Source: a virus
Length of the DNA stretch: 64,000 bases
IMG/VR virus record: IMGVR_UViG_3300032322_001107
Coordinates: 8,850-72,849 of that record
Direction: 5' to 3' (one strand)
Below the pieces are notes generated by a model that searched no databases, was not told the DNA's origin, and saw nothing but the letters and a program-made list of their open reading frames with translations. A program made the translations under genes and the position numbers. Below are positions 5,221-59,461 of the stretch, in pieces; positions within the stretch are counted from its first letter, which is position 1, and each line of letters opens with the position of its first letter.

Positions 5221-6183
5221 ATGGCTGAACCAATTCAATTTCCGCAGTCTGGACAAGGAGCCATATTAACTCCTTCAACCTTGGTTTCTCCCGATTTGCC
5301 AGAAGAGTGGGGTGGGCGACCCGCAGGAACATCCCGTAGAGCCATCCGAATGCAAGAAGATTGGGATAAGCGCAGAGCCGCAATGCTAGAAGAGCAGCAA
5401 ACCTCACAACAGATGGATGCACAGCGCAGGCAATTAGCTCTTCAAGAGCGGGATCAATTTATTCAAGATTCAGAATACAATCGCAAACTAAAAGAATACG
5501 AAGCGGAACAAGATATCAGGGGGCAGGCAGAAATGGAATCAAACAACATCCTTGATTGGCTAGGAGGCCGCGCTGTTGATAATCAAGGAAATCCCATTGC
5601 CAAACCAGACCCCAAAACTCCAGAATTTCAAACTGAATTTCTTCGCAGGCTTTCTGAAAATCCCCTTGGTGCAGAATTGAATAAGGGAATTGTAGATCAA
5701 TACATGGGCGCTAACAAAACCTATTTGGACGCCCAGCAAACCAAGCAAAGAGAAGAAGCCGCACTTCTGCGTGAAGAGAGGATGCTTGGTCGCCAATTGG
5801 CAGCAGAAGAAAGGGCCAAGGGCAGACAAATTGAAGCAGAAGAGAGGGCGCAAACACGCGCAGAAAAAAAAGCGGAAGAGTCACAAATAATTGGAATAGA
5901 TAAGGATATTCGCAGAGAAGAGCTTGCATTGGAAGATGTTGCGGCAAATCTTGGATTACAACGAGATCAGTCTGGAAGATTTAATATTGGCGGGCTTTCT
6001 GATACTCAGAAAAAAACATTTAGGGCGGCTGAGAATCGCGTTAGACTTTTGGAGCAAGACAGGGCACAATTGCAGGGATTTATGTTTGATACAGAGGCAG
6101 ATGCCCAAGCGGCAATTGAGGCCAAAACAGTTCCCAAGGGAGCTATTATATTTATTAATGGCAAAAAAGCTATCAACCGATAA
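5221..6183 (+). CDS. Putative internal virion protein, coiled-coil
   Basis: E/Q/R-rich helical protein with a C-terminal KGAIIFINGK cap typical of ejection proteins. Confidence 0.55.
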   Translation: MAEPIQFPQSGQGAILTPSTLVSPDLPEEWGGRPAGTSRRAIRMQEDWDKRRAAMLEEQQTSQQMDAQRRQLALQERDQFIQDSEYNRKLKEYEAEQDIRGQAEMESNNILDWLGGRAVDNQGNPIAKPDPKTPEFQTEFLRRLSENPLGAELNKGIVDQYMGANKTYLDAQQTKQREEAALLREERMLGRQLAAEERAKGRQIEAEERAQTRAEKKAEESQIIGIDKDIRREELALEDVAANLGLQRDQSGRFNIGGLSDTQKKTFRAAENRVRLLEQDRAQLQGFMFDTEADAQAAIEAKTVPKGAIIFINGKKAINR

Positions 6184-9100
6184 TGCCGATAGAATATCTA
6201 GATGATATCGAAGAGGATATTACAGAAGCGGCGGACACTACTCCTGTAGAGCAACCGCCCGTGGCTGGCATTTCTGAGCCAGTCGCACCAGAACCCTCTG
6301 GAGAGTTTGGCGGAAGGATTGAATACATCGAAGAAGAGCCTCTAGAAATAGAGCCTCCAAGAGATAATAGCTGGGACACACTCCGAGGTTTTGAGGTTTC
6401 GATGCGGCAAGTTCCGCAGTTGGCTTACGGGGTTGCGGGGTTGGTCGGTGAAACCGCAGAACAGCTTACAGGTTACGGAGAAAGTCTTCGGGATTTTGGA
6501 TTCAAGGGATACCAAGATTGGGCGCAAAGCATGGAGCCAATCTCCAAGGAAACTGACGATGTTACGGTGGCTTGGCAACGCGCAAAAGAAGGAGATGTTG
6601 GGGCTTTGGTGGATTGGGCACAATATGGAATTGGCTACGCTCTTGGACAGCTTGGAGAGACGGCGGCGGTTGCTGTATTGGGCGGGGTCGCTGGTGGTGC
6701 AGCGGGTGCGGCTGGTGGCCCAACAGCCGTTCCAGCGGCGGCGGGTGGCGCAGTAGCAGCGGCGGCTGGAAAACAAGGATTCAAGGCTCTTGCCCAAAAT
6801 CTTGTTGAGAAGGCCATTGCCAATCAGGCAACCAAGATTGTCACCAAACAAGCCCAAAAAGAAGGCGTTGAACTAACCGCCGAGCAATTAGCCAAACGTG
6901 CATCCCAAGAAGCCGTTAAGCGTCAGGCTGGAAAAGAGATTGGATCAAATGCCGCCATTTTTGCCAATGCTGTCGGTATGCAACTTGGTTCTATTTACGG
7001 ATCTGCCGAGGAACAGGCGCGAGCAGAGGGACGGGAACTTACGGGAGTTGACTTGGCTCGCATATGGGGAACTGGCGTTGCCACTGGCGGTATAGAAGGC
7101 GTTGTTGATAAATTTGGTTTGGATCTTTTGAAGGGCAAGCTTTCGGACAAACTTCCTGCTGGCAGGTTGGCTGGAGCAGCGGTGGCTGGCGGTATCGGAA
7201 CTGTTGGTGAGGCGGCAACCGAAGCCGTTCAAACCGTTGGAGAGCGTTTTGGTGCAGGAAAAGATATCCTTAGTGATGAGGCTATCAATGAATACATCAA
7301 TGCTTCCGCCTTGGGAGGTTTGGGTGGCGGGGCTATTGGTGGAGTTGGTGGATTTATCTCTGGCAACCCCAAGGAAAACGCCGCAGCCAAAGCCAAAGTA
7401 TCCTCTGAGGCAAATAAAGAGATTGCTCCCGCAAGCGCCGAAACCGTAGCCCGACAAGCCGATGCCGTCATTGCTGAGACAGTTCAAGAAACCCCCGAAC
7501 AGCGAGTGGCCCGTCTCCAAGAAGAAGCTACCGCAGCAGCAGGAATAGAACTAGAAGAAGAAGCTCCTGTTTCGGGGTTGCCCCCACAACCCGTCACCAC
7601 GCCCGTAGAACCCACAGCAGAAGGCGAGGTAGCCCCTGTAGAGCCAGTAGTTGAGCCAGCAGTAGCAGAGCCGCAGCCTGTCGCAGAAGTCGCGCCAGCA
7701 GACCAGCCATCGCCAAATCTTGCGCCCCGCGCCGAAGCAGCAGTGGAGGCACGGCCAGTCCGCCAAGAGGGCGAACCTATTGGAGACTTTCGCAATCGGA
7801 AGGATGCATGGGATGAACAATATGGCACAGATCGTCGCGGCGGGCGAACCCACAATGATGATGGAACTCCGTATCAGCCAACCGTTTTTGACGAAACAAT
7901 ATCACAGGTAAATGCGTCTGGTGTCATTGGCACAGATGAGGATGCGATGTCTGCCGCTATTGGAACAAGATCCGAACTGGAGGCTGGCAATGCCGTCAAG
8001 GATCTTGTGAATGCTGGATGGGTGTGGGATGCGGCACAAAACCGCATGGTCAACCCACAAAATCCCGAACAAAGACCCAGCGATGGACTCGTAGAAGCTA
8101 GGCAGGCACCAGCCCCTGTAACGCCAACTGCCCCCGCAGTGACTCCTCCCGCCGAGGTGGCTCCTGTTCCACAATTAGCACCAATAGAAGTAGAACCGCA
8201 AGTTGCCGCACAAAAAGCTATCGATGCCTCTAGACTTTCTGGAAGCACATTAGGCATGGACAGGGCCAATCAAGGAGTCGAACAGGCAAGAGAGGTTGCT
8301 TATGATGCGAAGAGAGAAGCATCACTTCCAAAAACACCGATTGATATTGCAATTCAAACATGGGAGGTGGCTGGTAATGAAACAAAATATGGAGAACCAA
8401 AATTTGCTTCTGGGGAGTTGGGCTTTGCTGTTTCAGGTGGGTACGATAAATCCACAAATGAAGTAAAACTTAGTAACAACCCAAGAGAATTTAGCTCCAC
8501 TTCTGGAGACTCAGCGTTGACCCCAAGATCTGTTGTGCGCCACGAACTTGGACATTGGGCATTGTTTAATGCGGCAGACAACGACTTGGTTCGTCGCCTG
8601 TTTGAGTGGGCTGACACCGCTGACAAAACTGGAATACTTAATCCTTGGCATGGAGGAAAAGCTGGAGTTGCTTATCCTAAAACAAAATTCGATTCACGCG
8701 ATGAATTGGTTTCTGAAGCATATTCCATATGGAAATCTGGAGGGAGTGTTCCAAATAATGTTATCCCGCTCTTACAGGATCTGGACGCACTTATTCCAAC
8801 CAATCTTCAAAATGAGGCATTGCAATTTGCAGATTCTCATTCAGAAAAACTTGGTGAACGCCCATCTGCTTCTCAGGTATTAAACGCGGATCGTCTACGC
8901 CGAGTAGTAAGAGCAGAACAAGCCCCAGAAGACGTTCCTTCCTTGGTGGATGCGGGGTTGGTCGAGGTGTATAAAGATCAACCAGTGCTTACCGAGGCAG
9001 GGATTGCCCAGTTGCCCGAAGCAGAACGCCCAAGGCTGAACCCCGAAGCCCGAAAGATCCAGATCGACACAGGATCAAACGAAGTAGTAGCCGAAGCCAT

Positions 9101-12100
9101 CGCGAAAAATCTTCGTATCGGGGTCGATCAGGTTGGAACTGGTGTGCGTATGCCCGCAGGCTGGACTCTGGTAGAGGATATCTATGTGCCGCCAGCCCCG
9201 CAGGAAGTTGTCCCAGAAGCGCCTGTTGCGCCAAAAGTTGAGCCAGAAGCCACTGAAGAAGAGCCAGCCAAAGTAGATCCTATCGACACGTTTAAGGGTG
9301 GTATTCGGGATTCGGGATTTAAATATCTAACATATTCAGATTTCAGAAGGGAAAACAAAACCCAAGACTGGGAAAAAGAAGGTGGGGTAACAATAGACGA
9401 AAGCTACTATCCTACGGCAGTTGTTGGCGATACCAGAGTAGCATTCGGAACCAACGGACTCTATGTATTCAAAAATCAAGTAAAAGAGCTTTACGAGTCC
9501 GATGTTGATGAAAACGGAAACACAATATTTACCATCCAGAGAATCGTTACCCCTGAAGACAAGCGTGGACAGGGGAGTGCGAGTAAGGCGCTGACCCAGA
9601 TCACAGATGCGGCGGACAAGGCTGGCCTAACACTCCAGCTTCAGCCCGCAGTAATCAGCACACTTGTCGGCAAAGGCGGCAAGGCTCTCAACGCAAAGCA
9701 ACTTGTGGATTGGTATAAACGAAATGGATTTGTCCAGAAGTTTGATGGCAGCGATGCCGTCCTTATCAGAAAACCAGTGACTTCAGCGGTTCCAGAGGTG
9801 ATTCCGCCAAGACCAGCAGATGTGGAGCCAGAACCCGCCGCAGAACAAGAGCTTCAATCCGTTGTCGATAAGTATCAAACATCCGAACCAACCGCTAGGA
9901 TGATACTTGCCAACCTTAATTTTGAAGCCAAAGAGGCTGGAGTTATTCCAGACGGGTGGGTTGTTGAAACAATAGGTGGTATAAAGACGGCACTTTCTCC
10001 CGTGTTTCAAAAAACAAGACGGGACATTCAAGTTGCAATTAGAAAATTTACAATACGTGAAAGAGGTGCATTGAGTGCTAGATTTTTCAAGGAAGGATGG
10101 ATTAATGAAGACCAAAGCAAGGAATATCTCCGTGAAGCAATTAGCCAAAGCTCTCAAGAGCGGGTCACAGCCGCCGAAGCCGAGGCGAACGAGAGATTCG
10201 ACGCTCTTGTTGAAAGAATTGTCGGAGAAAACAGAGCAAACATTTCAAGTGTTGTCGGAGAAGTATCAAAGCCGACAATTGATCTTGAGGCAGAAGAACA
10301 AGCCAGAGCAGAAAAGCCATCAGTATCTCCATCAGAAGTATTAGATCCGAATGAAATAGAGTTCATGTCGGCAAGACAGGCTTTGAAAAAGCTTGCCGAA
10401 TCCAATGTGATTAGTTTCAGCGATAGTGGAGCCAGCGGAAAAGCGCGGTGGAGATATACTGGAAAAATGGTAAAGCCTCAATATGTGAGGCTTCAAGAAG
10501 CGGCCTCTGTTCTTGCAAAAACTAATCTTCGCACCCTTGATGCCGAAAGAATAAACATCAGTGGAGATAAAAGCGGGAGAGCAAACAGAGCCTACGCTGG
10601 AGATATATTTATACCAAGAACAGAGGGCAGTGATAGACGCACTGCATATCTTGAACCATGGGTTTTGTTGCATGAGGTTGGGCACACCCTTACGTCTGAT
10701 GCATTTCAGAAATATGTTCCAGATAAGGGATTGATTGGTGCTGATTATTACAAACAGCTTAAAGACACACTAAAGAACAAGAAGGTTCCAAGAGAAGTAA
10801 GGCGGGCTATCACGCTTTACATAGACACAATCAAAGCACTTGGATTTGAAAAAGAATATTTCAAAAAGGGAGGACTTGCCAGCAACAACGCTGATCGCGG
10901 ATTGAGGAACGCAGCAGCAAGAACGTCAAATAAATTAATCAATCCGTTTACTGGAAATGAAATAACACGGGATGACATGTATGCGCTTGCCGACATGCAT
11001 GAGTTTTACGCGCAAGCTTGGAATAGCGAGTCCTTCCAAGACATTCTCAAGCAGATCAAGGTTGAGCCACAAAGAAGTGCATTCCAAAAGTTTGTAGAGA
11101 TCGTCAAAGACATTTTTGGATTTGAGTCGGACACAATGGCATATGCCGTGATCGATACCTCTCTCAGACTTGCCTCGCTTGAAGCACCAACAGACACTGG
11201 AGCTACTATTGAAAGCAGGATTAAAACGCAAAAAGAATTTCGCGCCGTCAAGGAGTTGCCGCGAACAAAAATGCGTTGGACGAATTTTGGCAACGGAAAA
11301 TACGGAGGAGACCGAGTCAAAATGTCCAGAAACAAGTTTGTAAAACTTGGATATGATATGGCCCATTTTACAATCACCAAAGGATACAAGGGTGTTTTCG
11401 GCGGTGGTGGTAATCAATGGTCTGTGCGTGTTTCCATAGAAGAGTTTTACAGCAAGGGTAAAAAAGCTAACCAGCTTTTGCCGCAGACTGAAATTTTTGT
11501 AAGGACATTTGATAGCAAGGCCACAGCCGAAGAATTTGCTGAAAGGCTTGCGTCTGATGTCAATGGGATGGTTAATGAAAAATACGGAGCCTTGAAGAAA
11601 GGGGCACCACAACCACCGACTACTCGCGGAAAGCCCGCTCCAAGACCAAGATTTGCCCCCGCCCCCGAAGTAAGAGAATCCCGCAGAGAAGACGCCATCC
11701 CCACCTTCTCCGAGGGAAGCCCCGAAGCCACAACCCTTTCTACTATGGCAGCAGCAATGGCCAAAGTGGATGGCGCATCCGAGGCCAAGCCAAACCCCGA
11801 AAACAAACCCACCTACAAGATCAGCGAGATAGCCTCCGTCTGGATGGATCAGGGTGGAGATGTTCGCCAACTCCAAGACCTTATCTCAGAGAATACCAAT
11901 CTTACCCCAACCAATGCAGCGAAGGTGGCCAATGCCATTGCCAAGCAATACGATATCCAGCAGTCCATTGCTACGGCCTTCATCGAAACCCAAACGGGAT
12001 TGTCTGTTGAGGCACTACCCGAAGGTGTAACCCTTCCCAAGGAGGTTGACCCTGATCGTCCGCGCCCCGTCATGCAACGCCTTTTTGATGTATTTATGGG

Positions 12101-15100
12101 TGTGCGCGTTAAACCAGTTAAGATTACTGGTGATGAAAAGGCATTGCTTAAAAGTCAAATTCGTCTAAAGGCCGCAGCCAATCGTGCGGCAAAACAGGAG
12201 CAGCAACGCACCGCAGACGAGGTTGTTGAGATTATCAAATCCATGGAGCTTCGCGGCCCCGTTCGTCCGAAACAAGCCCAAGCCCTTGCCAAACGTGCAG
12301 CCAAAGTCATTTGGACTAGCGAGAAGTCCATGGAGAGCTTTGTCGAATACGCTGCCAAGGTGGTAGAGAACGCCAACTATGATGCCGATCTTCGCGAGGC
12401 CAAGGCAGCACAGAAACGCGCCAAGGAACTTTCCAAACAGAAGAGAGTCGCTATGAGTCCGCAGCGCCTGATCTTGCAACAAATCGGAAATGTCGCAGTT
12501 AACAAGCTGGATGATCCGCGCATGTTTGCCGAGATGATCAACTACTACTTGCGTGGATTCAAGGATGTGCGTTCTCCTGATTATGTAGTTGTTCCTGATG
12601 AAGAAATCACGGGCTACATTTCTCAACTTGAAACAGAGTCTGTTAAGGATCAAGCCGAGGTAGAGCGCGAGACCAACGAAAGGCTTGCCCGCAAATACGA
12701 CCTTGATCCAAATACTATTCCAGAGTTGATGAGCCTTATCAACATCATTGAAGAGATTGAAGGCAGGGAGAATCGCGAAGCCTTGGAGTCCATCCTTACA
12801 GACAAAGCAATCGAAACCCAAGACGGGTTGCGCGGCTACGACACAACCGCGCTTACCAACACTCAAAAGAAATTGGTCGAGTCAATGCTTGGTGTGGATC
12901 TCAAATCCATCAATAACCAAGAGAAGCAAATGTTTATTCGTATTGCCAACAATATGATTTACAACAATCAGACCAATGGCGCGGAATACTTTGTGGCTAC
13001 AGCCAAGGGTCAGCAGAACGCTCGCAAGGCGGCACAGGATTCAAAAATGATCCAACGCAACAAGGCTTGGATTCCTCTTATTCCTTCATTCGGATCTTTG
13101 AAACTTCAGGAAACCCTTCGCAACTTCTCTTTGGAATTGCAATCGGTAGCCGACACCTTCCGCAACGTCTTCGGAAAAGACTTCATGGCCAAGGCTTACG
13201 AGATGATGGGCATGTTGGATTTGAACGAGGGATTCACCAAGGCCAATAACACCATTGATGAAATACAAGATCTGATGGCAGAGTTCCACCAAGGCAACGA
13301 AAAGACATACGGTGACGCAGCCCGCAATCAAGACGGCATTCTTTCTGAAGGTGTGGCTGGATTCTTGATCCAAGAATTTCCGTTCAAGGATGAAGCAACT
13401 TCAATTCAGCAACGCCGAAACCTGATCAATGAATATATCGCCAATGCCCGTGAGTCGCGCCAAAAAGACCGTGTGGCTATGGCAGATCGCGTTGAGGCAA
13501 TCCTAAACAAAGTTGATGGGGCTTCTGTTCAAGAGATCTTGAACAACATGAAGCGCGAATACCGCCCGAACTATGATTCTCTCATGTGGTATAAGGATGT
13601 TCTGTTCCCGAAATACAAAGACTTCCTCAAGCAGTTTGACGAGAACTTCAACGATCAGGCCAATAACTACGATAGCCCCAACTATCTTCCGATTGCCTTC
13701 ACTTCGGCTGGCCCAGCCTTGGCACTTGGCCCCGAAGACGTAAGTATTGCCAACTCAATTTCTCTCCAGCCCAAACAGTCGGTCTATACGATCAAGCGTC
13801 AGGATTACACCACGCTTCCAAAAGACAAGGACGGCAACCCTAAAGAAATTGAATTCAATCTTCGTCGCACCGCATTCAATAGCCTGTCAGACCAGATCAA
13901 TAAGGCTTACACCAACCCTGCTTGGCAGCAGATTTTTGCGTTTATGAAGACGCCAGAATCCATTGAGTTCTTTGGGGACAAAGCTAATCGTGATTTCTTT
14001 GTAGATCGCCTCAATAGGTTGCGAGCTTCCAGAGCAAGGCGTGGATCGGTAAGTGGAGGAGCTTTGGAAAAAGCACTTGATTCTTTCAGTATTATCTCCA
14101 GAAAGCTTGGCACTGGCATCGCGCTTGGTGGTGTATTCCAATGGATTAAGCAGCCCCCAGACCAGCTTCTTACGGCACTTGGAAGCGGAGGACGAGCAGA
14201 TCTTCTGGCTAAAAACATTGCTCCATCTACACAGAAAGCGGCTAGAGAACTATTAAATCAGTTTTCGATTGGAAGGCGCGGCGACTCATCTGCTGGTTAT
14301 AAATACATTAACCAGATGGAGGGCCATCAAAGCCGCATGGAGCGTTATTTCTCAGAAAGTAAATGGGAGCAGGCCAAGGAACAAGGCGGAAAGATTGCTG
14401 ATGTTTGGATGGTGGCTCTGAAGAAATCCGATTTCATTTCGGCCTCTGCTGCATGGATGACTTACTACGAAGGAGAGTTAAACAAGAACGACATCAAGAT
14501 TGATGATTGGGCCAAGGAAGCCGAGCTTGTCAAAACCGATCCTGTCAGACGTCAAGCGGCAGCGTATGCCGAGCAGATGACCGACATCTATCAGGGTTCT
14601 AGCGACCCGACATCCATGGCAACATTTGCCCAGAGCGGTAAAACTGGATGGGAGAACTTCACCAAGGCTTTGCTTGTTCCGTTCAACTCATTTGCCATCC
14701 AGCAACGCATGAGGCTTTACTCTGATGCCAGAGACGCACTTAATGGAACCAGTGGCGGCAAGGGAGGACTAGCTGGAACCATTGGTGGCCTTATCCTTTT
14801 CCATACCACAAAACGATTTGTTCTTCCTGTTATTTCTGGAGGAACCGCAGCCATTCTTTACGGAATGCTGGGAGTTGACATGGAAGAGCCAGACGAAGAG
14901 AAGCAGAAAGAGATGGCCGACAGGAACTGGCGTCAGTTCTTGGCCGACATTACTGGCAACTTGCTGGTTGGCGGAACCCCGCAGCTTGTTGAAAATAGGA
15001 CGATTGAAGCCTTTAACTATGCTTCTTACATGGTTGGTTTACAGCTTGAGAGCGAAACTGTCATGGATGAAAACGGAGAGATTATGTCATTTGACAAGTA

Positions 15101-15416
15101 TTCCAAAGAGCGTTCTCCATTCTATCGCTACAAGTCTTACGATAACGCCATGAGTCTTGGCATGTTTGATATCGGATTTGATCAAGCAAAAGAAACAGCC
15201 CTTCAAACCAAGATGCTGATGGATCGGGACGAGATGGAAATGTATACTCCAGAAGAACAGCGACTGCTTTACTTCTCCGCCCTTTCAGAATGGCTCTATC
15301 TCATGCGCCTCAATGACACAGACTTCGCTCGCATTGTGAAAAAGGCCCGCCGCGATATGATCAAAGCAGCCGAAGAACGCGAGAAGGAATTGGCCCGTAT
15401 CCGCGCTGGACGCTAG
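6183..15416 (+). CDS. Large polyvalent/internal virion protein (two zincin motifs, GNAT domain)
   Basis: 3077 aa. Gly/Ala hydrophobic N-terminal region, HELGH (8541-8555), GNAT motifs RGQGSASKAL...WYKRNGF (9561-9731), HEVGH (10671-10685). Confidence 0.8.
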   Translation: MPIEYLDDIEEDITEAADTTPVEQPPVAGISEPVAPEPSGEFGGRIEYIEEEPLEIEPPRDNSWDTLRGFEVSMRQVPQLAYGVAGLVGETAEQLTGYGESLRDFGFKGYQDWAQSMEPISKETDDVTVAWQRAKEGDVGALVDWAQYGIGYALGQLGETAAVAVLGGVAGGAAGAAGGPTAVPAAAGGAVAAAAGKQGFKALAQNLVEKAIANQATKIVTKQAQKEGVELTAEQLAKRASQEAVKRQAGKEIGSNAAIFANAVGMQLGSIYGSAEEQARAEGRELTGVDLARIWGTGVATGGIEGVVDKFGLDLLKGKLSDKLPAGRLAGAAVAGGIGTVGEAATEAVQTVGERFGAGKDILSDEAINEYINASALGGLGGGAIGGVGGFISGNPKENAAAKAKVSSEANKEIAPASAETVARQADAVIAETVQETPEQRVARLQEEATAAAGIELEEEAPVSGLPPQPVTTPVEPTAEGEVAPVEPVVEPAVAEPQPVAEVAPADQPSPNLAPRAEAAVEARPVRQEGEPIGDFRNRKDAWDEQYGTDRRGGRTHNDDGTPYQPTVFDETISQVNASGVIGTDEDAMSAAIGTRSELEAGNAVKDLVNAGWVWDAAQNRMVNPQNPEQRPSDGLVEARQAPAPVTPTAPAVTPPAEVAPVPQLAPIEVEPQVAAQKAIDASRLSGSTLGMDRANQGVEQAREVAYDAKREASLPKTPIDIAIQTWEVAGNETKYGEPKFASGELGFAVSGGYDKSTNEVKLSNNPREFSSTSGDSALTPRSVVRHELGHWALFNAADNDLVRRLFEWADTADKTGILNPWHGGKAGVAYPKTKFDSRDELVSEAYSIWKSGGSVPNNVIPLLQDLDALIPTNLQNEALQFADSHSEKLGERPSASQVLNADRLRRVVRAEQAPEDVPSLVDAGLVEVYKDQPVLTEAGIAQLPEAERPRLNPEARKIQIDTGSNEVVAEAIAKNLRIGVDQVGTGVRMPAGWTLVEDIYVPPAPQEVVPEAPVAPKVEPEATEEEPAKVDPIDTFKGGIRDSGFKYLTYSDFRRENKTQDWEKEGGVTIDESYYPTAVVGDTRVAFGTNGLYVFKNQVKELYESDVDENGNTIFTIQRIVTPEDKRGQGSASKALTQITDAADKAGLTLQLQPAVISTLVGKGGKALNAKQLVDWYKRNGFVQKFDGSDAVLIRKPVTSAVPEVIPPRPADVEPEPAAEQELQSVVDKYQTSEPTARMILANLNFEAKEAGVIPDGWVVETIGGIKTALSPVFQKTRRDIQVAIRKFTIRERGALSARFFKEGWINEDQSKEYLREAISQSSQERVTAAEAEANERFDALVERIVGENRANISSVVGEVSKPTIDLEAEEQARAEKPSVSPSEVLDPNEIEFMSARQALKKLAESNVISFSDSGASGKARWRYTGKMVKPQYVRLQEAASVLAKTNLRTLDAERINISGDKSGRANRAYAGDIFIPRTEGSDRRTAYLEPWVLLHEVGHTLTSDAFQKYVPDKGLIGADYYKQLKDTLKNKKVPREVRRAITLYIDTIKALGFEKEYFKKGGLASNNADRGLRNAAARTSNKLINPFTGNEITRDDMYALADMHEFYAQAWNSESFQDILKQIKVEPQRSAFQKFVEIVKDIFGFESDTMAYAVIDTSLRLASLEAPTDTGATIESRIKTQKEFRAVKELPRTKMRWTNFGNGKYGGDRVKMSRNKFVKLGYDMAHFTITKGYKGVFGGGGNQWSVRVSIEEFYSKGKKANQLLPQTEIFVRTFDSKATAEEFAERLASDVNGMVNEKYGALKKGAPQPPTTRGKPAPRPRFAPAPEVRESRREDAIPTFSEGSPEATTLSTMAAAMAKVDGASEAKPNPENKPTYKISEIASVWMDQGGDVRQLQDLISENTNLTPTNAAKVANAIAKQYDIQQSIATAFIETQTGLSVEALPEGVTLPKEVDPDRPRPVMQRLFDVFMGVRVKPVKITGDEKALLKSQIRLKAAANRAAKQEQQRTADEVVEIIKSMELRGPVRPKQAQALAKRAAKVIWTSEKSMESFVEYAAKVVENANYDADLREAKAAQKRAKELSKQKRVAMSPQRLILQQIGNVAVNKLDDPRMFAEMINYYLRGFKDVRSPDYVVVPDEEITGYISQLETESVKDQAEVERETNERLARKYDLDPNTIPELMSLINIIEEIEGRENREALESILTDKAIETQDGLRGYDTTALTNTQKKLVESMLGVDLKSINNQEKQMFIRIANNMIYNNQTNGAEYFVATAKGQQNARKAAQDSKMIQRNKAWIPLIPSFGSLKLQETLRNFSLELQSVADTFRNVFGKDFMAKAYEMMGMLDLNEGFTKANNTIDEIQDLMAEFHQGNEKTYGDAARNQDGILSEGVAGFLIQEFPFKDEATSIQQRRNLINEYIANARESRQKDRVAMADRVEAILNKVDGASVQEILNNMKREYRPNYDSLMWYKDVLFPKYKDFLKQFDENFNDQANNYDSPNYLPIAFTSAGPALALGPEDVSIANSISLQPKQSVYTIKRQDYTTLPKDKDGNPKEIEFNLRRTAFNSLSDQINKAYTNPAWQQIFAFMKTPESIEFFGDKANRDFFVDRLNRLRASRARRGSVSGGALEKALDSFSIISRKLGTGIALGGVFQWIKQPPDQLLTALGSGGRADLLAKNIAPSTQKAARELLNQFSIGRRGDSSAGYKYINQMEGHQSRMERYFSESKWEQAKEQGGKIADVWMVALKKSDFISASAAWMTYYEGELNKNDIKIDDWAKEAELVKTDPVRRQAAAYAEQMTDIYQGSSDPTSMATFAQSGKTGWENFTKALLVPFNSFAIQQRMRLYSDARDALNGTSGGKGGLAGTIGGLILFHTTKRFVLPVISGGTAAILYGMLGVDMEEPDEEKQKEMADRNWRQFLADITGNLLVGGTPQLVENRTIEAFNYASYMVGLQLESETVMDENGEIMSFDKYSKERSPFYRYKSYDNAMSLGMFDIGFDQAKETALQTKMLMDRDEMEMYTPEEQRLLYFSALSEWLYLMRLNDTDFARIVKKARRDMIKAAEEREKELARIRAGR

Positions 15417-33262: not shown

Positions 33263-33793
33263 TTATCGGCGCTTCTTTTGGGCGCGGATATTCTTTCCAG
33301 CCAAGGCTTGCTGGTAAGCTTCTTCGGTAATGACTCGGCCTCGGAGCTTAAATACCCAATTACGTTGGCGCGTAAAACTCCAACTTAGTCCCAAGGCTTT
33401 GAGGGTTGCCGCTGTCATTCCACCTTTAATTTTGAGGCTTTCAATAATCTTGGAGTCAATAACTCTGGTAGATGTAAGCTTGTCCCGCCTGTTTGGCTCC
33501 ACGGGATCAACCATGGGTTCGGGCTTTGGTCTGGAAATCTTCCGTTGAAACTTGCGGGACTCCTCGCGTTCCACAGCGTGGAAGTTCTTGTGGCACTTTT
33601 TACAGAGACAAATCAAGTCATCAAGGTGGTTTAGCTCATCTCCCTTATGCTCGTAAGTTCGATGGTGTGCCTGCAAATCTAGGGGGCTGTTACAGAGTTG
33701 ACAGCGGAATCCTGCTCGCTTTTTGACGGCCCTACTCACCTCTCGCCAGTAAGGAGTTGTAAGGTAGGCTTGGTATTGAAATTTCGTTATCAT
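33263..33793 (-). CDS. HNH endonuclease
   Basis: YLTTPYW, CQLC, HHRTY, LCKKCH. Confidence 0.85.
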   Translation of the reverse strand: MITKFQYQAYLTTPYWREVSRAVKKRAGFRCQLCNSPLDLQAHHRTYEHKGDELNHLDDLICLCKKCHKNFHAVEREESRKFQRKISRPKPEPMVDPVEPNRRDKLTSTRVIDSKIIESLKIKGGMTAATLKALGLSWSFTRQRNWVFKLRGRVITEEAYQQALAGKNIRAQKKRR

Positions 33794-33862
33794 CGCGGAA
33801 CCCTTGCGCTGCGCGGCTTATCGGTTCGGTCAGTAACTGGATTATTTCGAGATTTCATCCGA

Positions 33863-34384
33863 TTACCACAATCCCCGAATTTCTCCCTGATACTCTTCCT
33901 CGTCCCCATAACCTGATACAATATTCTCATCATATATTGTATTCTGTATATTGGTATTCTCTGATATTGGTGTTATAATGTGGTCGAAGTTTCCCGTGGA
34001 CGGAATTTCCCGTGCGCTAGAAACCTTGACCACGGAAAGAGGGGAACGCCAATTTGTGCGATTGCTACGCTGATCTTCCGCAACTGGTGCATCATAAAAT
34101 GTCCAAGTATTGCAGAATCCTCCCTTACCCCCGCCAGAAAGCTCATACTTTACATAGCCAAGACTTTCCAATTCCCGAAAGTAGGTCTTGACCCTGTTGG
34201 CCCCGTCTGTGGTGTTGTTTACAAAGTAAGCCCGATTTGCCACCCACTCATCGGCGTTGGATAGCACCATAGCCAGCAAACCTCTCGCCCCAAATGACAA
34301 CTTCTTATCTCTTACGAGATCGTTTGATAGCTGGACAAATCCGCCCCTAGTTACCCGCTTATAGACTGTTTGATTCTTTTTCAT
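33863..34384 (-). CDS. Phage replication initiator / replisome organizer (wHTH)
   Basis: FVQLSNDLVRDKKLSFGARGLLAMVLS...ELESLGYV; contains internal iteron-like repeats. Confidence 0.75.
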   Translation of the reverse strand: MKKNQTVYKRVTRGGFVQLSNDLVRDKKLSFGARGLLAMVLSNADEWVANRAYFVNNTTDGANRVKTYFRELESLGYVKYELSGGGKGGFCNTWTFYDAPVAEDQRSNRTNWRSPLSVVKVSSAREIPSTGNFDHIITPISENTNIQNTIYDENIVSGYGDEEEYQGEIRGLW

Positions 34385-34399
34385 AGCAATAAATAAAAT

Positions 34400-34546
34400 T
34401 GCCACTCAAATGACGGGGCGTGGGATGATTGAGAACCCGACAATGAAACAAGCAAGTTACTCCCTCACCCCGCCACTTGAATGGCAGATTAATATTTATT
34501 GTTATTTCTTGTTTCATACTCAATCGTCTGGGTTCTCACGTCAGAC
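34400..34546 (-). ncRNA. Structured leader / antisense RNA switch upstream of the replication initiator
   Basis: 26-bp stem (34400-34425 with 34461-34486). Its loop is complementary to 34508-34517 and 34530-34538. Confidence 0.65.
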
Positions 34547-34739
34547 TGTTGTAACTTCTCACAAAGGGTCAGACATGGCAAGTTCAAAAACGCTCAAAAA
34601 AACATTGAACGCCCCGAAGGGGCCATGGTCTATGTCTATATGAATACTTTTGGAGGCGGGGAGACTCGGCATGAAAATGCGAAGGCTTCAAAGATCGGGG
34701 GGTCAATGAAGTTGCGCCACCCCGTTTCCAATCTCTTTT

Positions 34740-35093
34740 ATGAACAGACAAGAAGCAATACAACTACAGATCGATGAAATCATGGATAGTTTTGACTTCC
34801 AATCAGCCATGAGGGTATTGGAGGTCTACAAGTCCATGGAGCGGGGTTATCCCAAAGACTGGTTCCTAGACGATGAGCCGTTTGAGCCTGCTATTCGGGC
34901 AGCAGCCCGCGAGTGCATGAAGGCGGCGGTCAAGCATAGTTATGCTGGTCATAGCTATTTTGAGTCCCGCTTTGAAGAGGGAGAAGACGATGACGGCCCA
35001 TGGGTCAGGATTTTCTTCAACTTCGGAGATCATAGCCACAATGACGGAGTATCTTATGAAAAAACTGCTACTACTACCACTGTTACTGAGTAA
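34740..35093 (+). CDS. Hypothetical protein
   Basis: IDEIMDSFDF pattern, common in phages. Confidence 0.6.
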   Translation: MNRQEAIQLQIDEIMDSFDFQSAMRVLEVYKSMERGYPKDWFLDDEPFEPAIRAAARECMKAAVKHSYAGHSYFESRFEEGEDDDGPWVRIFFNFGDHSHNDGVSYEKTATTTTVTE

Positions 35094-35337
35094 TACCCTT
35101 GCCCAAGATGGATCGTTTAATGGAACGGTTTATGACTTGGATTCGGGGCGGATACAGGTCATTAGTGGGTCTGTGGATATCAAGCCAAAGGAGGATACAT
35201 ATCTTTCTACCCTTCGTCGCATCAATGCGGAGTTGGCGGAATCAAACGCTCGTATGAGTGCGGAGATTACAGCCAACAATCAACTTTATGAACTGCGCGA
35301 GCAGACAAGGCTCCTGCGTAAAATTGCCGACCAATGA
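35056..35337 (+). CDS. Putative secreted protein
   Basis: Signal peptide MKKLLLLPLLLSNTLA|Q. Confidence 0.6.
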   Translation: MKKLLLLPLLLSNTLAQDGSFNGTVYDLDSGRIQVISGSVDIKPKEDTYLSTLRRINAELAESNARMSAEITANNQLYELREQTRLLRKIADQ

Positions 35338-35981
35338 GTAACTATCTCAACGTCAATATCCCCACCTTCTTTGCTTTTGTAGATGAGGGATTCTTTTACG
35401 ATCTTGAACCATGTGTCAGCAGGGAGAGACAACTAGTCGAGGTATTTGCCTTCACCTCCATCCCCCAACGGTGTGGGTTGTTTAGCGTGATGACAGAATA
35501 CGGAAGCCAGCATGCCCGTGTCCCGATCCATTACCTTCATACTGATGAGACTGGAGGCACATCTTACCCCTTGGACTGGATACAACTCTGGGACTCCATG
35601 AGCTACTATTGTAGTGTTACGATGCATGATTATTGCAAAAACCGTGCAGCAAACATCATGTTGAAGAACAAAATCTTTGAAAAAGGGAAATACATGTTCA
35701 CGCTGGACTGGTGTTTCGGCCCCCACTATACCTCTGGCTACGGCGAGATGGCGGCTGGGCATAAGTGCGGTCATGTGTTTGCGGGCGATGGGCAATACTT
35801 TATCCAGCCCAACAATCGTGTGCTGTGGATGGACGGGGGATCGTTCATTGCCAAGAAGTTTCCACAAAAGCCCGATTGGAAGGTATTTAGCCAAGAATTT
35901 AGCTGCGAAAGCACAGGAAGCCGCTGGGTTAGCGAAAGCGAGGAGGAGCTATGGTTTTACGACTTCAAAGAGCAGGGATAG
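35334..35981 (+). CDS. Conserved phage protein
   Basis: LNVNIP, QLWD, YMFTLD, HKCGH and QPNNR motifs. Confidence 0.7.
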   Translation: MSNYLNVNIPTFFAFVDEGFFYDLEPCVSRERQLVEVFAFTSIPQRCGLFSVMTEYGSQHARVPIHYLHTDETGGTSYPLDWIQLWDSMSYYCSVTMHDYCKNRAANIMLKNKIFEKGKYMFTLDWCFGPHYTSGYGEMAAGHKCGHVFAGDGQYFIQPNNRVLWMDGGSFIAKKFPQKPDWKVFSQEFSCESTGSRWVSESEEELWFYDFKEQG

Positions 35982-36298: not shown

Positions 36299-36877
36299 TT
36301 ATGCGTATTTCCAAATTCTTCCCTTTGCCGTATTGCACCTTCCAGCAAGAACATTAGATACGCCCTTTCCGTATTTTTTAATTGCAAAACTGGTTGATTC
36401 AAATTTTTCAATATTTCCATTTTCATCAATTCCAATTACTGGTTTCTTCGTTTTTTGATTTCTAGATTTTTCGATGAACAATCTTTTGACTTCTGCTGGA
36501 TCTTTGGGGCGTGAATATCCATTCCGTCTAAAATATTCATTACAAGCATGGCAAATTCCCCTTCTTGATTGTCCGCGACACGGAGCGCCACAATTTTTAC
36601 AATGAGTATTAACTGGTCTCAATTTTGTTTCGCTTTGTTGCTTTGGAGTTGCCCAGCGGCAATTTTTCTTTTCGTAGTTTCCGTTTGGGTCAATTCTGTC
36701 CAAAGATGTTCCAAATGGTCTTGGCCCCATATCCTTGTCAAAATTTTTAAAAATCCTCCATCGATCACAAACCTTAATGCCTCTTGCGCCATACCATTTC
36801 CAAGATTCTCTTTTTGGGTTTGTGCAGCGTTGTATCATTGCTGCCCAACATGAATATGAAGATATTGTTTTAATCAT
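36299..36877 (-). CDS. Free-standing HNH homing endonuclease with NUMOD1-like C-terminus
   Basis: WAAMIQRC, YGARGIKVCDRW, SLDRIDPNGNYEKKNCRWAT; C-terminal TAKGRIWKY; AT-rich. Confidence 0.85.
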   Translation of the reverse strand: MIKTISSYSCWAAMIQRCTNPKRESWKWYGARGIKVCDRWRIFKNFDKDMGPRPFGTSLDRIDPNGNYEKKNCRWATPKQQSETKLRPVNTHCKNCGAPCRGQSRRGICHACNEYFRRNGYSRPKDPAEVKRLFIEKSRNQKTKKPVIGIDENGNIEKFESTSFAIKKYGKGVSNVLAGRCNTAKGRIWKYA

Positions 36878-36915
36878 GTTGCCACAATACATCCTATTAT
36901 GGCAGAAATCAAGAA

Positions 36916-37266
36916 CTATTTAATATTGTCTTCGTTTTCCTCTCCAAAAGTTATTTTATGAGAATCTATTATCCATCCACTTCTTCTAGCTTCTTTTGCA
37001 TTTTTATGAATTTCGTTATGACACAATCGACAAAGCGCGGCAAAAAGACTGTAGTCACAAAGATAGCGACCAACCCTGCCCGCCTTATGATGGATATCTT
37101 GACTCTTCGCCTTCTTACATTTCTCGCATATGGGATGCAGTGCCAAGTAGGCTTTTTTTACCTTTGTATACTCATTGTATTCACGCTGGCGTTTGGGGGA
37201 TGCGCTCCGCAACCTTCCGCTGCGCTTAAGTGGGGTTTTTGAACGAAGTGGAGTTTTTCTTGTCAT
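36916..37266 (-). CDS. HNH/NinG-like nuclease
   Basis: Basic N-terminus, CEKC, DIHHKAGR, LCRLCHNEIH. Confidence 0.75.
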   Translation of the reverse strand: MTRKTPLRSKTPLKRSGRLRSASPKRQREYNEYTKVKKAYLALHPICEKCKKAKSQDIHHKAGRVGRYLCDYSLFAALCRLCHNEIHKNAKEARRSGWIIDSHKITFGEENEDNIK

Positions 37267-38871: not shown

Positions 38872-40176
38872 ATGCAAGAAGTCATCTTTGAACCATCCGC
38901 CGAAACCGCCATCCTTTCCTGCCTCTGTCATGCCCCGTCAGAGGATCAGCGCGAGATCCTTTTATCTATAAAGGAAGATCATTTCTACCTTCAGGAGAAC
39001 AAGATCATCTTTCGGGCGGTCATGCGCTGTATCGCCAAGGGGATGCAGGCTGACATCATCAATGTTAAAGGAGAGATCGAAGCTGCCAACGAATACGATA
39101 TCGTTGGGGGTGAACAAAAGATTACAGAAGTTGCAACTTCATGTGTAGCCCATAACAACTGGAAGCGTTACTATCCCAAGCTGGAGGAAGCCCGCTACAG
39201 AAGGTCTCTGGAATACTTAGCCAATGACATGGTTCACAAAGCCAGAGATCGCGAGCTAAAGATTGAAGAACTCAAGAACTGGTCAGAGACCACCGTCATG
39301 CGGGCTGACTACGAGATGGATGATGGTAGTAAGCTTTCCATCAACAACGCCTTGGATCGCGCTGCCCAGAACATCGAATCCACGATTGCTGGAAAACCCT
39401 GTATCGGCATTCGCACTGGCATCACTCCATTGGATGACCTTCTCATGTTTGGCTTGCGCGGCGGGGACATGGTTGTATTGGCCGCAAGACCAGCGGTTGG
39501 TAAGACGGCAAGCGCCCTTCAGATTGCAGAAAACGTGGCACTTAACCAAAAGAAGCGGGTCTTGATCTTCTCTTTGGAGATGACCAGCGTTGCCCTCATG
39601 GAGCGCATGATCCGCTCGCGGGCGAGGGTGGGTGCTGCTGATATCCTTTCTGGTCGGGTGACTCCGCATCAGAAACAGTCTCTCGGACGGGCCGTGCAGG
39701 AAATCCAAGCATCCGAAATCATCTGCGATGACAGTTCGGCCAAATCCATTGGCTATCTCAAGGCGGTAGCTCGCCGCGCCCACCAGCGCACTCCGCTAGA
39801 CCTCATCATCATTGACTACCTCCAGTTGGTTAAGGGCGATAGTAAGCGCGGAAAAGACAATCGCGTGTGCGAGGTGGAAGAGATTAGCGGTGGCATCAAG
39901 GATCTAGCCAAGACCCTTAAGGTTCCAGTTTTAGTGCTGGCCCAACTCAACCGCGACCCAGACAAGCGCGGAGGACGCCCAAGCCTTTCAGACCTTAAAG
40001 GATCTGGAGCCATCGAACAGGACTCAGATATCGTCATTTTAATTCACAACGAAGAGGCGCAGGATCATACACAGATGCCGAATATAGAATTTATTGTAGC
40101 GAAACATCGTGACGGTGGAACAGGAGTTGCTAATATGGCATTTAACAAAGCAATAACTAGATTTGAATTGCCGTGA
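38872..40176 (+). CDS. dnaB: Replicative DNA helicase
   Basis: AARPAVGKT (Walker A), FSLEM, IIIDYLQL, LAQLNR, SDLKGSGAIEQDSD. Confidence 0.96.
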   Translation: MQEVIFEPSAETAILSCLCHAPSEDQREILLSIKEDHFYLQENKIIFRAVMRCIAKGMQADIINVKGEIEAANEYDIVGGEQKITEVATSCVAHNNWKRYYPKLEEARYRRSLEYLANDMVHKARDRELKIEELKNWSETTVMRADYEMDDGSKLSINNALDRAAQNIESTIAGKPCIGIRTGITPLDDLLMFGLRGGDMVVLAARPAVGKTASALQIAENVALNQKKRVLIFSLEMTSVALMERMIRSRARVGAADILSGRVTPHQKQSLGRAVQEIQASEIICDDSSAKSIGYLKAVARRAHQRTPLDLIIIDYLQLVKGDSKRGKDNRVCEVEEISGGIKDLAKTLKVPVLVLAQLNRDPDKRGGRPSLSDLKGSGAIEQDSDIVILIHNEEAQDHTQMPNIEFIVAKHRDGGTGVANMAFNKAITRFELP

Positions 40177-40670
40177 TAAAAAAGCATACATATCAAGAAG
40201 TTTCAAAAATATTAGATTACAACCCAAGCACTGGTCGATTTTATAGAAAAATTAATACATCGGCCAATGGAAGAACTGGACTTGTAAAAGGATATATCAA
40301 TAACGCTGGATACAGAAAAACCAGCGTTTTGGATTATCAATATTACGATCATCATTTGGCTTGGTTGCTACATTATGGCGAATGGCCGCAAAAACAAATT
40401 GACCACATCAACAATAAAAAGTCGGATAACAGAATAAAAAATCTTCGACTTGCTACCGTTAGCCAAAACGGAATGAATCGGTCTTTTCAAAAAAATAGCA
40501 TATCAAAAGAAAAGTGTATTCATTGGAAAAAAGAAAAGAAAAGGTATTTGGTCAGAATTGGCGTTAATAGAAAATATCGACATTTTGGATATTTTAAAAC
40601 AGTTGAAGAAGCAATTGTGGCTAGAGACAAAGCCATCAAAAAACTTCATGGCGAATTCGCCAAAGTTTAA
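40173..40670 (+). CDS. HNH-AP2 homing endonuclease
   Basis: IDHINNKKSDNRIKNLR plus an AP2 domain ending HGEFA; AT-rich. Confidence 0.9.
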   Translation: MIKKHTYQEVSKILDYNPSTGRFYRKINTSANGRTGLVKGYINNAGYRKTSVLDYQYYDHHLAWLLHYGEWPQKQIDHINNKKSDNRIKNLRLATVSQNGMNRSFQKNSISKEKCIHWKKEKKRYLVRIGVNRKYRHFGYFKTVEEAIVARDKAIKKLHGEFAKV

Positions 40671-58234: not shown

Positions 58235-59461
58235 ATGTCAGCACAAACTGCTACTACTTGTGAAGCTATTAGCGACCAGTTTCAACGCGAGACTGGACGT
58301 ATCGCTCTTGGCACACATCGCTTGGGTCTTTACAAAGATCCCTATATGCGTTTTGTAACGCAATCCGCTTTCCCCGACAATATGGGAGCGGTTATCACCA
58401 ACACCATCGCCCAGCGCACTGTTGCCGTTGGCAGCGGATGGGAAGATGTCGGCGTCACTGGCGTTGATGGCGAAGCCAACTCCTGCTTGGCCCCCGTCAA
58501 AACCGTTGGCTATGCCTTCGATCAGAAAACCTTCAAACTCCGCCATCAGGCGATTGAGTCGAACTGGATCTGCTTGGAAGACGTTCGTACTTCGGCGTTC
58601 CCGATTGACGATGTCAACAACTACATCAAGATCCTTGCCGACAACGTCAATAAAGAGTGGGTTGAGCGTTATGACAACGACTACTACGCAGCCGTGACGA
58701 AAGTCTCTGTGGAACCTGGCCTTGCCGAGTCCACGGGATCGACTTTTGGTTCGCTGCCGAACCCGACCTCCGTCCTCACGGTTGGCGTCCTTCGCGAACT
58801 CTATGATCGTCTCTACCAGAACAACGCTGGTGATGACGGTGATGCGGTGACCGATGACGGCTCGCCTGTGTTCAACGTGTTTGCCGAACGCGCCACGATT
58901 GAGAACCTGATCAAACTCAACGAAGATGTCCGTCAGGATATCCGCTGGAGTGATCGCGTTAACGATCTGCTTGGTGCTAATGGCTCCTCGCTCCTGCCCC
59001 GTAAGGCTTACGGTGGATTTGTGTTCCATAGCCGCCCGTTCCCGAAGCGTTTCAACGACAACGGATCTGGTGGTTATACCGAAGTTGCTCCTTACGTCTC
59101 CACGACTGGCGCGACCAAGGGCACGAAGTTCATCATCAACCCCGCCTACAAGGCTGCGAAATACACCTCCACGGTTGTTTTCCATCCGAAGGCCGTTGAG
59201 TGGCTGGTTCCGAATCCTAACCTGAAAGTTGGAAAACTCGTTTACGATGCCCAAAACTATCGTGGCGATTTCCGCTGGATCAACGAGTTCGACCGCAATT
59301 GTAACCCTGACAAAAACAGCGGTTACTGGCGGGCGAAGATGGCGTGTGCCGCGAAACAGGTGTTCCCTGAATTCGGCTATTACCTGATTCATCTCCGTTG
59401 TAACCTCGCTAATGACTTGGTTGCATGCTCTTCGGGCAGTGGGTACGGGTACCTTAGTTGA
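58235..59461 (+). CDS. Major capsid protein
   Basis: 408 aa, strong codon bias, own promoter and downstream hairpin, position after the scaffold. Confidence 0.8.
   Translation: MSAQTATTCEAISDQFQRETGRIALGTHRLGLYKDPYMRFVTQSAFPDNMGAVITNTIAQRTVAVGSGWEDVGVTGVDGEANSCLAPVKTVGYAFDQKTFKLRHQAIESNWICLEDVRTSAFPIDDVNNYIKILADNVNKEWVERYDNDYYAAVTKVSVEPGLAESTGSTFGSLPNPTSVLTVGVLRELYDRLYQNNAGDDGDAVTDDGSPVFNVFAERATIENLIKLNEDVRQDIRWSDRVNDLLGANGSSLLPRKAYGGFVFHSRPFPKRFNDNGSGGYTEVAPYVSTTGATKGTKFIINPAYKAAKYTSTVVFHPKAVEWLVPNPNLKVGKLVYDAQNYRGDFRWINEFDRNCNPDKNSGYWRAKMACAAKQVFPEFGYYLIHLRCNLANDLVACSSGSGYGYLS

Follow-up and report, generated by a model that had tools for sequence, protein, structure and literature searches.

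An uncultivated phage genome (IMG/VR record IMGVR_UViG_3300032322_001107) carries, directly upstream of a gene resembling phage replication initiators, a leader RNA element in which the loop of a long hairpin is complementary, through two short boxes, to sites farther upstream on the same transcript. The element is structured, complementary and conserved, one of its helices has switched sequence in a compensatory manner, and its pairing belongs to the sense of the initiator transcript. On balance, we favor the reading that this leader, which heads the leftward replication run, constitutes a self-contained RNA-RNA switch masking the start of a leader open reading frame (ORF) and gating the initiator operon. 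The virus record is complete (72,849 bp, with direct terminal repeats), and the window, the whole 64,000-nucleotide (nt) stretch analyzed here and numbered from its first letter, corresponds to bases 8850-72849 of that record. Within it, the element occupies a 355-bp gap separating two divergent gene sets, with rightward genes beginning at 34740 and the leftward run at 34384. Its parts, read on the minus-strand transcript, are the following.

34526-34546, minus strand: small hairpin, GUCUG (34546-34542) with CAGAC (34530-34526), presenting box a in an 11-nt loop
34530-34538, minus strand: box a, UGAGAACCC, exact complement of a'
34508-34517, minus strand: box b, AUGAAACAAG, exact complement of b', its first three bases being the AUG of the leader ORF
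34359-34517, minus strand: leader ORF of 52 codons plus stop, crossing the long hairpin and overlapping the initiator start by 26 nt
34461-34486, minus strand: 5' strand of the long stem, from fold and covariation
34426-34460, minus strand: apical loop of 35 nt, holding b' (CUUGUUUCAU, 34452-34443) and a' (GGGUUCUCA, 34438-34430)
34400-34425, minus strand: 3' strand of the long stem, from fold and covariation
34385-34399, minus strand: A/U-rich spacer, AAUUUUAUUUAUUGC(U), between stem and initiator AUG, unvaried in all related leaders that reach it
33863-34384, minus strand: initiator-like gene encoding a 173-residue winged-helix protein, at the head of a long leftward run that includes dCMP deaminase and primase genes

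The 26 positions of the long stem comprise 25 pairs, four of them G-U, and one A.A mismatch, and the stem ends 15 nt before the initiator ATG (34384). The leader ORF begins with the ATG at 34517 and stops at 34361-34359. Boxes AUGAAACAAG and UGAGAACCC are the sole exact copies of these words on the minus strand, both in the window and in the 72,849-bp genome. An earlier note, made from the sequence alone, had described the stem, the loop boxes, their upstream targets, the small hairpin and the 52-codon upstream ORF, and all are borne out here, position for position.

Comparison with shuffled sequences indicates that neither the hairpin nor the paired boxes are readily produced by chance. The 98-nt hairpin has a folding energy of -48.9 kcal/mol, compared with a shuffle mean of -23.65 (z -8.28), and 0 of 200 shuffles were as good. 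Dinucleotide shuffling of the upstream 114 nt yielded two colinear, exactly complementary words of at least 9 nt in 11 of 20,000 cases; one exact match of this length or more, taken alone, is not rare (1,212/20,000). The duplex between loop and upstream region reaches -30.2 kcal/mol against a shuffle mean of -19.0, a value reached by 6 of 2,000 shuffles. In a genome-wide duplex scan, the leader (-30.2) is not the single best site, as one other site reaches -31.1 (in two overlapping scan windows) and another -30.0. No other position in the 72,849-bp genome carries both exact boxes, and what is unique to the leader site is therefore the exact box pair. Elsewhere, a stretch of 11 nt at 58897-58907 on the plus strand, within a rightward gene of 408 codons, is exactly complementary to the loop (GAUUGAGAACC); it is probably not a target, since by a rough estimate about one such match is expected by chance. 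Two further complementarities within the leader (AAGUUAC/GUAACUU and GAUUGAG/CUCAAUC) were dropped as not conserved in relatives, as was an alternative minimum-free-energy hairpin (34578-34537), which is built on a variable 8-nt segment and is for that reason not conserved.

Protein- and pattern-based scans added 17 contigs (13 viral, 4 metagenomic) that share this leader, giving 18 leaders in total, and pairs were counted on an alignment of these leaders (14 distinct rows) under a specified pseudoknotted structure. Over the 162-nt core, which extends from the small hairpin as far as the initiator ATG, identity between contigs averages 93%, and 97% outside b/b', while identity in the flanks (800 nt on each side) falls to 0-55% by the measure applied. 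The proposed pairing is present in 97.5% of 686 cells, compared with 37-46% when the partners are slid against each other, and 0 of 500 shuffles reach the observed pairing percentage or covariation score. In the long stem, one A-U pair is replaced by G-C (3 distinct rows), two pairs show one-sided G-U/A-U changes, and a single cell, in contig L084, is broken. Lineage-specific insertions occur in the intergenic region aligned with 34595-34650 (∼66 nt in L001, L002 and L007; ∼59 nt in L004 and L005). They show the leader core to be a conserved island within a control region that is otherwise mosaic.

The b/b' helix occurs in two versions. Type 1 (AUGAAACAAG / CUUGUUUCAU) is found in 11 contigs and type 2 (AUGAACACU / AGUGUUCAU) in 7; between the two types, 5 of the 12 pairs have changed on both sides. 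In both versions the helix continues through a mismatch into two further pairs, one of which is likewise re-matched. Cognate b duplexes reach -11.9 kcal/mol and non-cognate ones only -3.1 or -3.2. The AUG is kept in both box types and also in the variant of contig L031 (AUGGAACAAG, a G-U change). The leader ORF is open in all 17 leaders that reach its stop, and its peptide is not conserved where the boxes switch. The earlier note had staked its proposal on complementarity being conserved in homologues: it is kept in 18 of 18 leaders, and b/b' switches as a matched block.

Box type is not coupled to the surrounding genes. The initiator proteins of the relatives fall into two types, A and B, which are 52-53% identical to each other, and these combine with both box types (A/1 in 9 contigs, A/2 in 2, B/1 in 2 and B/2 in 4, with one unknown). 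Both box types also occur with similar upstream flanks, and no flanking protein tracks the box type. Specificity therefore resides in the leader and not in a neighboring protein. The names of contigs L003 (type 1) and L007 (type 2) have a common dataset prefix, and the two types apparently coexist in one community. Wider searches returned no further version: of 7 metagenomic loci matching a stem-anchored pattern, 4 were real and 3 due to chance, with no new box type among them. The antisense 77-residue frame, used as a protein query and thus as a proxy for leader variants, gave 6 clusters, all type 1, one of which (P0006) implies, from protein only, a CAU to CGU change in b' that keeps a G-U pair. 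The pattern TGAGAACCC...GGGTTCTCA, run on viral contigs, gave 12 extra loci and was discarded, all being unrelated chance matches.

The pairing is also strand specific. Folded in the plus sense, the hairpin region reaches only -32.1 kcal/mol against -48.9 in the minus sense; the one-sided changes in the stem are G-U/A-U swaps that keep pairing in the minus sense only, and the box pairs cross the stem instead of nesting within it. Strand-asymmetric pairing and crossing boxes therefore indicate an RNA of the initiator's sense (single-stranded DNA being less likely) and argue against a double-stranded DNA palindrome. Origins of phages are frequently located inside or beside their initiator genes and contain repeats and AT-rich stretches; here, AT-rich tracts flank the GC-rich inverted repeat, so a DNA-level element beside the initiator gene (a replication origin, a cruciform or a protein-bound inverted repeat) deserves consideration. 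It is nevertheless highly improbable, as the four G-U pairs and the one-sided changes pair in the minus sense only (with 17 kcal/mol lost in the plus sense), the boxes are not palindrome-nested, and there is no iteron array. The only plus-strand promoter-like site, at 34370-34399 (a 9-of-12 match), is within chance expectation (1 found; shuffle mean 1.8). Judged from sequence and conservation, the leader is a real, conserved, strand-specific RNA element with two-box pairing, either intramolecular or intermolecular.

A second lineage, represented by the 43-kb viral contig L097, has a leader of the same layout built from different sequence. Its initiator is distant (44% identity in the best tblastn segment, 41% in a second tblastn comparison and 33% over the aligned N-terminal region). 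Its small hairpin has another stem (CGGG/CCCG) with the loop CCUGAGAAA, followed by two in-frame AUGs. A long stem of more than 20 bp, different in sequence, encloses a 34-nt loop containing GCUUGUUCUUGG and is followed directly by a UUUUUGUUU tract, and a leader ORF of 45 codons ends in a stop that overlaps the initiator ATG as ATGA. The complementarity between loop and upstream region is weak, and the initiator frame is also open through the leader region; L097 therefore supports the architecture more than the boxes. A search for further relatives of L097 returned L097 alone.

Taken together, these features suggest how the switch would operate. The leader ORF would be translated from box b, which is plausible because both AUGs lie in unstructured A/U-rich sequence and this phage rarely uses Shine-Dalgarno sites; such motifs are found before only 21 of its 85 crude ORFs, and many starts lie in A/U-rich sequence; the host therefore probably does not rely on them. 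Translation of the leader would melt the terminator-like hairpin and/or couple to the initiator. When the loop pairs, b' would engage box b (the leader AUG and the next 7-9 bases) and a' would engage the hairpin-displayed box a in a kissing contact, hiding the leader start codon. With the leader untranslated, the long hairpin would stay folded, leading to termination at the U-tract and/or loss of translational coupling, and expression of the initiator and downstream genes would fall, a negative sign that we infer. The spacer at 34385-34399 could act as the U-tract of a terminator or offer ribosomes an unstructured landing site. The long stem is followed directly by AAUUUUAUUUAUU, as in a terminator, although a 25-bp stem with a 35-nt loop is atypical for an intrinsic one. 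A terminator scan did not call the spacer and hairpin, because it accepts loops of 3-8 nt only.

The same features could be read as a leader-peptide attenuator and nothing more, in which translation melts a terminator, the complementarity is secondary, and TGAGAA is an operator, for instance for the winged-helix protein. In both lineages a U-rich tract follows the stem and the leader ORF spans it, and within 135 nt TGAGAA is found in three unvaried copies, two in direct orientation and one inverted. Such an attenuator leaves the exact 10-nt b/b' match and its compensatory switch unexplained, however, and flanking proteins do not covary with that switch. Furthermore, initiator types A and B differ at nearly half of their residues yet have identical a boxes, and the terminator scan made no call. 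We consider this explanation unlikely.

A more serious rival is a long-range pseudoknot that acts in cis only, setting a fixed low level of leader-ORF initiation or affecting the folding or stability of the messenger, with no diffusible regulator. The partners are separated by 56-91 nt of a single transcript, which kinetically favors pairing in cis; this pairing is topologically compatible with the long stem, the genome holds no second target elsewhere, and a discrete small RNA is itself conjectural. However, a cis-only pseudoknot gives no obvious reason for a matched block to switch into two coexisting, flank-uncoupled types, a pattern that would be typical of specificity determinants acting between genomes. 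We regard it as rather unlikely, though a serious competitor to the RNA switch.

Action between genomes would extend the proposed RNA switch by one step. A hairpin RNA would be made from every transcript, by termination or by processing, and its 25-bp stem would suit cleavage by RNase III; once released as a discrete RNA, it could, being made from every transcript, act in trans on other leader copies. The outcome would be a dose-dependent shut-off of replication genes, specific to each box type, and the main argument for trans action, an indirect one, is that two matched types coexist on shuffled backgrounds. Only tentatively, therefore, do we propose an RNA-only, self-targeting regulator embedded in its own leader ORF, evolved independently and acting in trans from one genome to another when members of an apparently lytic lineage co-infect a cell, with the box versions serving as compatibility types.

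Several observations weigh against the switch, or against parts of it. Both pairing partners sit on one transcript, so cis pairing may dominate. The sequence diversity among relatives is narrow, and the number of pairs changed on both sides (6) is not above that of shuffles (mean 5.3; 207/500 reach it); the covariation evidence is therefore real but shallow. The b/b' switch is probably one evolutionary event common to 7 contigs. The a/a' pairing (18/18 leaders) and the small hairpin (5 pairs, 14 distinct rows) never vary and therefore give no covariation signal, and the a-type boxes could be DNA sites, with TGAGAA occurring three times. The promoter scan called no sigma-70-like site on the minus strand. 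The leader AUG has no Shine-Dalgarno sequence before it and the leader peptide is not conserved, the former point being tempered by the scarcity of such motifs in this phage. The stem is followed by AAUUUU and not CCA, so maturation by RNase P as in C4 has no support in the sequence. The sole sequencing run consists of contigs, probably of DNA, and its 158-nt contig covering 34368-34525 is silent on transcript ends. In L097, the loop/upstream complementarities (7 bp and 6+3 bp) are weak and alone not significant. In more distant homologues (L134-L136, initiator 37% identical) the hairpin leader is absent, and the gene upstream is an ordinary one with an ATGA overlap.

The earlier note had called the element C4/CI-like and had proposed an Infernal search against the Rfam C4 families. 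At gathering score (45 bits for C4, RF01695; 46.7 bits for c4-a1b1, RF03163), Rfam returned nothing in the window, and at E<=10 nothing in 33900-35100 except a chance match to a small nucleolar RNA. RF01695 had no match in the whole 72,849-bp genome, nor in 14 control genomes. The same library applied to P1 immI as a positive control recovered C4 at 68.8 bits, c4-a1b1 at 51 and isrK (RF01394) at 35.1, the last a weak match to a1b1 and below its cut-off. With Rfam negative here and positive in P1, the leader is therefore not a member of the C4, c4-a1b1 or isrK families. The label holds as an analogy, given the parallels with P1 anatomy, and fails as family membership: the element is C4/CI-like in logic, not in ancestry, and so far comes from a narrow set of uncultivated phages.

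The parallels with P1 C4, whose layout was taken from the P1 annotation, its sequence and the Rfam alignment, extend to the order of the parts. In both, regulator and targets share one transcript and recognition uses two short boxes; b' lies 5' of a', and a long basal stem (17 bp in P1) encloses both. Like box a, P1 a1 sits in a small hairpin loop, with a linear b just downstream (b1 follows 7 nt later in P1), and P1 icd overlaps the start of ant as the leader ORF overlaps that of the initiator. The differences are equally clear. The leader boxes share a single open loop of 35 nt, in which no more than a weak, G-U-rich hairpin of 5 bp forms; C4 instead has two inner hairpins, the loop of the second holding b' and the junction of a multiloop holding a', an arrangement that the leader lacks. 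Its boxes are longer (9-10 nt against 7-8 in P1), and according to the genome scan its targets are upstream only, without the downstream a2/b2 site of P1. Unlike in P1, the upstream box b contains a start codon and the regulator lies inside the ORF that this codon opens. C4 is matured by RNase P and has a CCA-like 3' end; the leader, unlike C4, has no CCA 3' of its stem. The controlled gene is initiator-like here and an antirepressor (ant) in P1, and the phage, unlike P1, has no lysogeny genes among the 47 ORFs scanned. P1 and P7 differ in c4 specificity.

Closest in purpose is the CI RNA of satellite phage P4, a leader RNA that stops its element's own replication genes. P4 immunity operates in lysogens, and CI is processed from an untranslated transcript, whereas the present element lies within an ORF. 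The RNA from the leader of the P4 replication operon pairs with an upstream site on the same transcript, causing premature termination of the replication genes (PMC4825925). The two systems share a complementary upstream site on their own transcript, in the leader of their own replication genes. The present element is placed as P4 CI is, directly before the initiator-like gene that opens the leftward replication run. P4 has a downstream site, seqC, as well, and the genome scan found none here. The same source describes Gifsy-1 IsrK, in which a short isoform and a read-through mRNA arise from one promoter and the short one acts on the long; IsrK controls a small ORF coupled to a downstream regulator and is called a structural homologue of P4 seqA RNA (PMC4825925). 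IsrK activates its target, and the present leader has no match to isrK RF01394 in the Rfam scan.

Plasmid replication control offers a second comparison. R1 (CopA/tap/repA) and IncI1/IncB plasmids (Inc RNA/repY/repZ) couple rep to an overlapping leader peptide whose translation is blocked by an antisense RNA, and in IncI1/IncB a hairpin loop forms a long-range pseudoknot within the leader (PMC8053102). The common feature is a leader ORF overlapping the initiator start (by 26 nt here, as ATGA in L097). The plasmid antisense RNAs come from the opposite strand, whereas the complementarity here lies within one strand; likewise, the IncI1 pseudoknot activates rep translation, whereas the pairing here covers a start codon.

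The controlled gene itself is a plausible but abbreviated initiator. Residues 1-150 match PHROG 4707, 1456, 186, 270 and 428 (E 1e-13 to 1e-9), and the matched part is the N-terminal winged-helix region of DnaD-like loaders and phage replication initiators; against Pfam, the 173-residue protein stays below the cut-off of every family. The name replication initiator, used in the earlier note, is thus reasonable by its PHROG matches, with the limit that the product holds the N-terminal winged-helix part only. The L097 homologue (1483-2424) is a full-length O-like/DnaD-like initiator, and nothing in the 72.8-kb genome from which the window is taken matches its DnaD-like C-terminal domain. A split initiator was rejected, as that domain is unmatched both in this genome and in a 109-residue ORF. 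The initiators of contigs L004, L005 and L084 end in a different C-terminal tail.

Upstream of the small hairpin, conservation extends through one further segment before the alignment becomes irregular.

34549-34594, minus strand: conserved block holding a second GUCUGAC...UGUGAGAA copy, mostly unvaried in the 18 leaders

The next 8 nt, and the sequence further upstream, are variable or contain indels. The block may include a promoter or an operator. On the minus strand, GUCUGAC...(U)GUGAGAA is present as two direct copies (34553-34572 and 34533-34546), and the upstream copy is as unvaried as the box-a hairpin; this copy may be a duplicated operator or promoter, or its UGAGAA may serve as a third, weak partner of a'. 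Farther upstream, at 34605-34626 on the minus strand, lies a GCCCC-UUCG-GGGGC tetraloop hairpin with a run of seven U 8 nt later. It is present in most relatives, and L004, L005, L031 and L084 have non-hairpin sequence instead.

In the wider genome, the PHROG scan covered 47 of the 85 crude ORFs and matched an exonuclease, a primase, a DnaB-type helicase, a dCMP deaminase, a RusA-like resolvase, a terminase, tail proteins and four HNH endonucleases; no lysogeny gene (integrase, repressor or antirepressor) was found among the ORFs scanned. The HNH genes (33263-33793, minus strand; 36299-36892, minus; 36916-37266, minus; 40173-40670, plus) span ∼7.4 kb around the replication genes, and one of the four lies directly after the initiator-like gene. 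Among GenBank phages, the region 33800-35400 has no DNA relative, the terminase has no match, and the initiator and primase have distant protein matches only. Searches of 185,579 prokaryote species genomes with the initiator, as a single protein or as an alignment, returned no relative. At 6183-15416 on the plus strand of the window lies an ORF of 3077 residues with no PHROG match at E<=1e-5; the idea of an N4-like giant virion RNA polymerase, raised by the 72.8-kb size and the terminal repeats, was dropped, as this ORF has no such match.

To our knowledge, same-transcript antisense regulators are known only from a few proteobacterial temperate elements, namely P1/P7 C4, P4 CI and their relatives. 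If the proposed switch is real, the same logic would have arisen in an unrelated, uncultivated 73-kb phage without recognizable lysogeny genes, wired to an initiator-like gene through a leader ORF and a terminator-like hairpin. If the box versions do act as compatibility types, each phage would shut off replication genes only in genomes of its own type, an RNA analogue of plasmid incompatibility or of P1/P7 heteroimmunity that operates outside lysogeny and outside the C4/CI family and whose independent origin would lie in a host with little use for Shine-Dalgarno sites. The two natural types differ in one 9-12 bp helix only, which makes them ready compensatory mutants and an orthogonal pair of RNA regulators. 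More broadly, it would show that a conserved island within the mosaic control region of a phage can be an RNA switch and not a protein operator.

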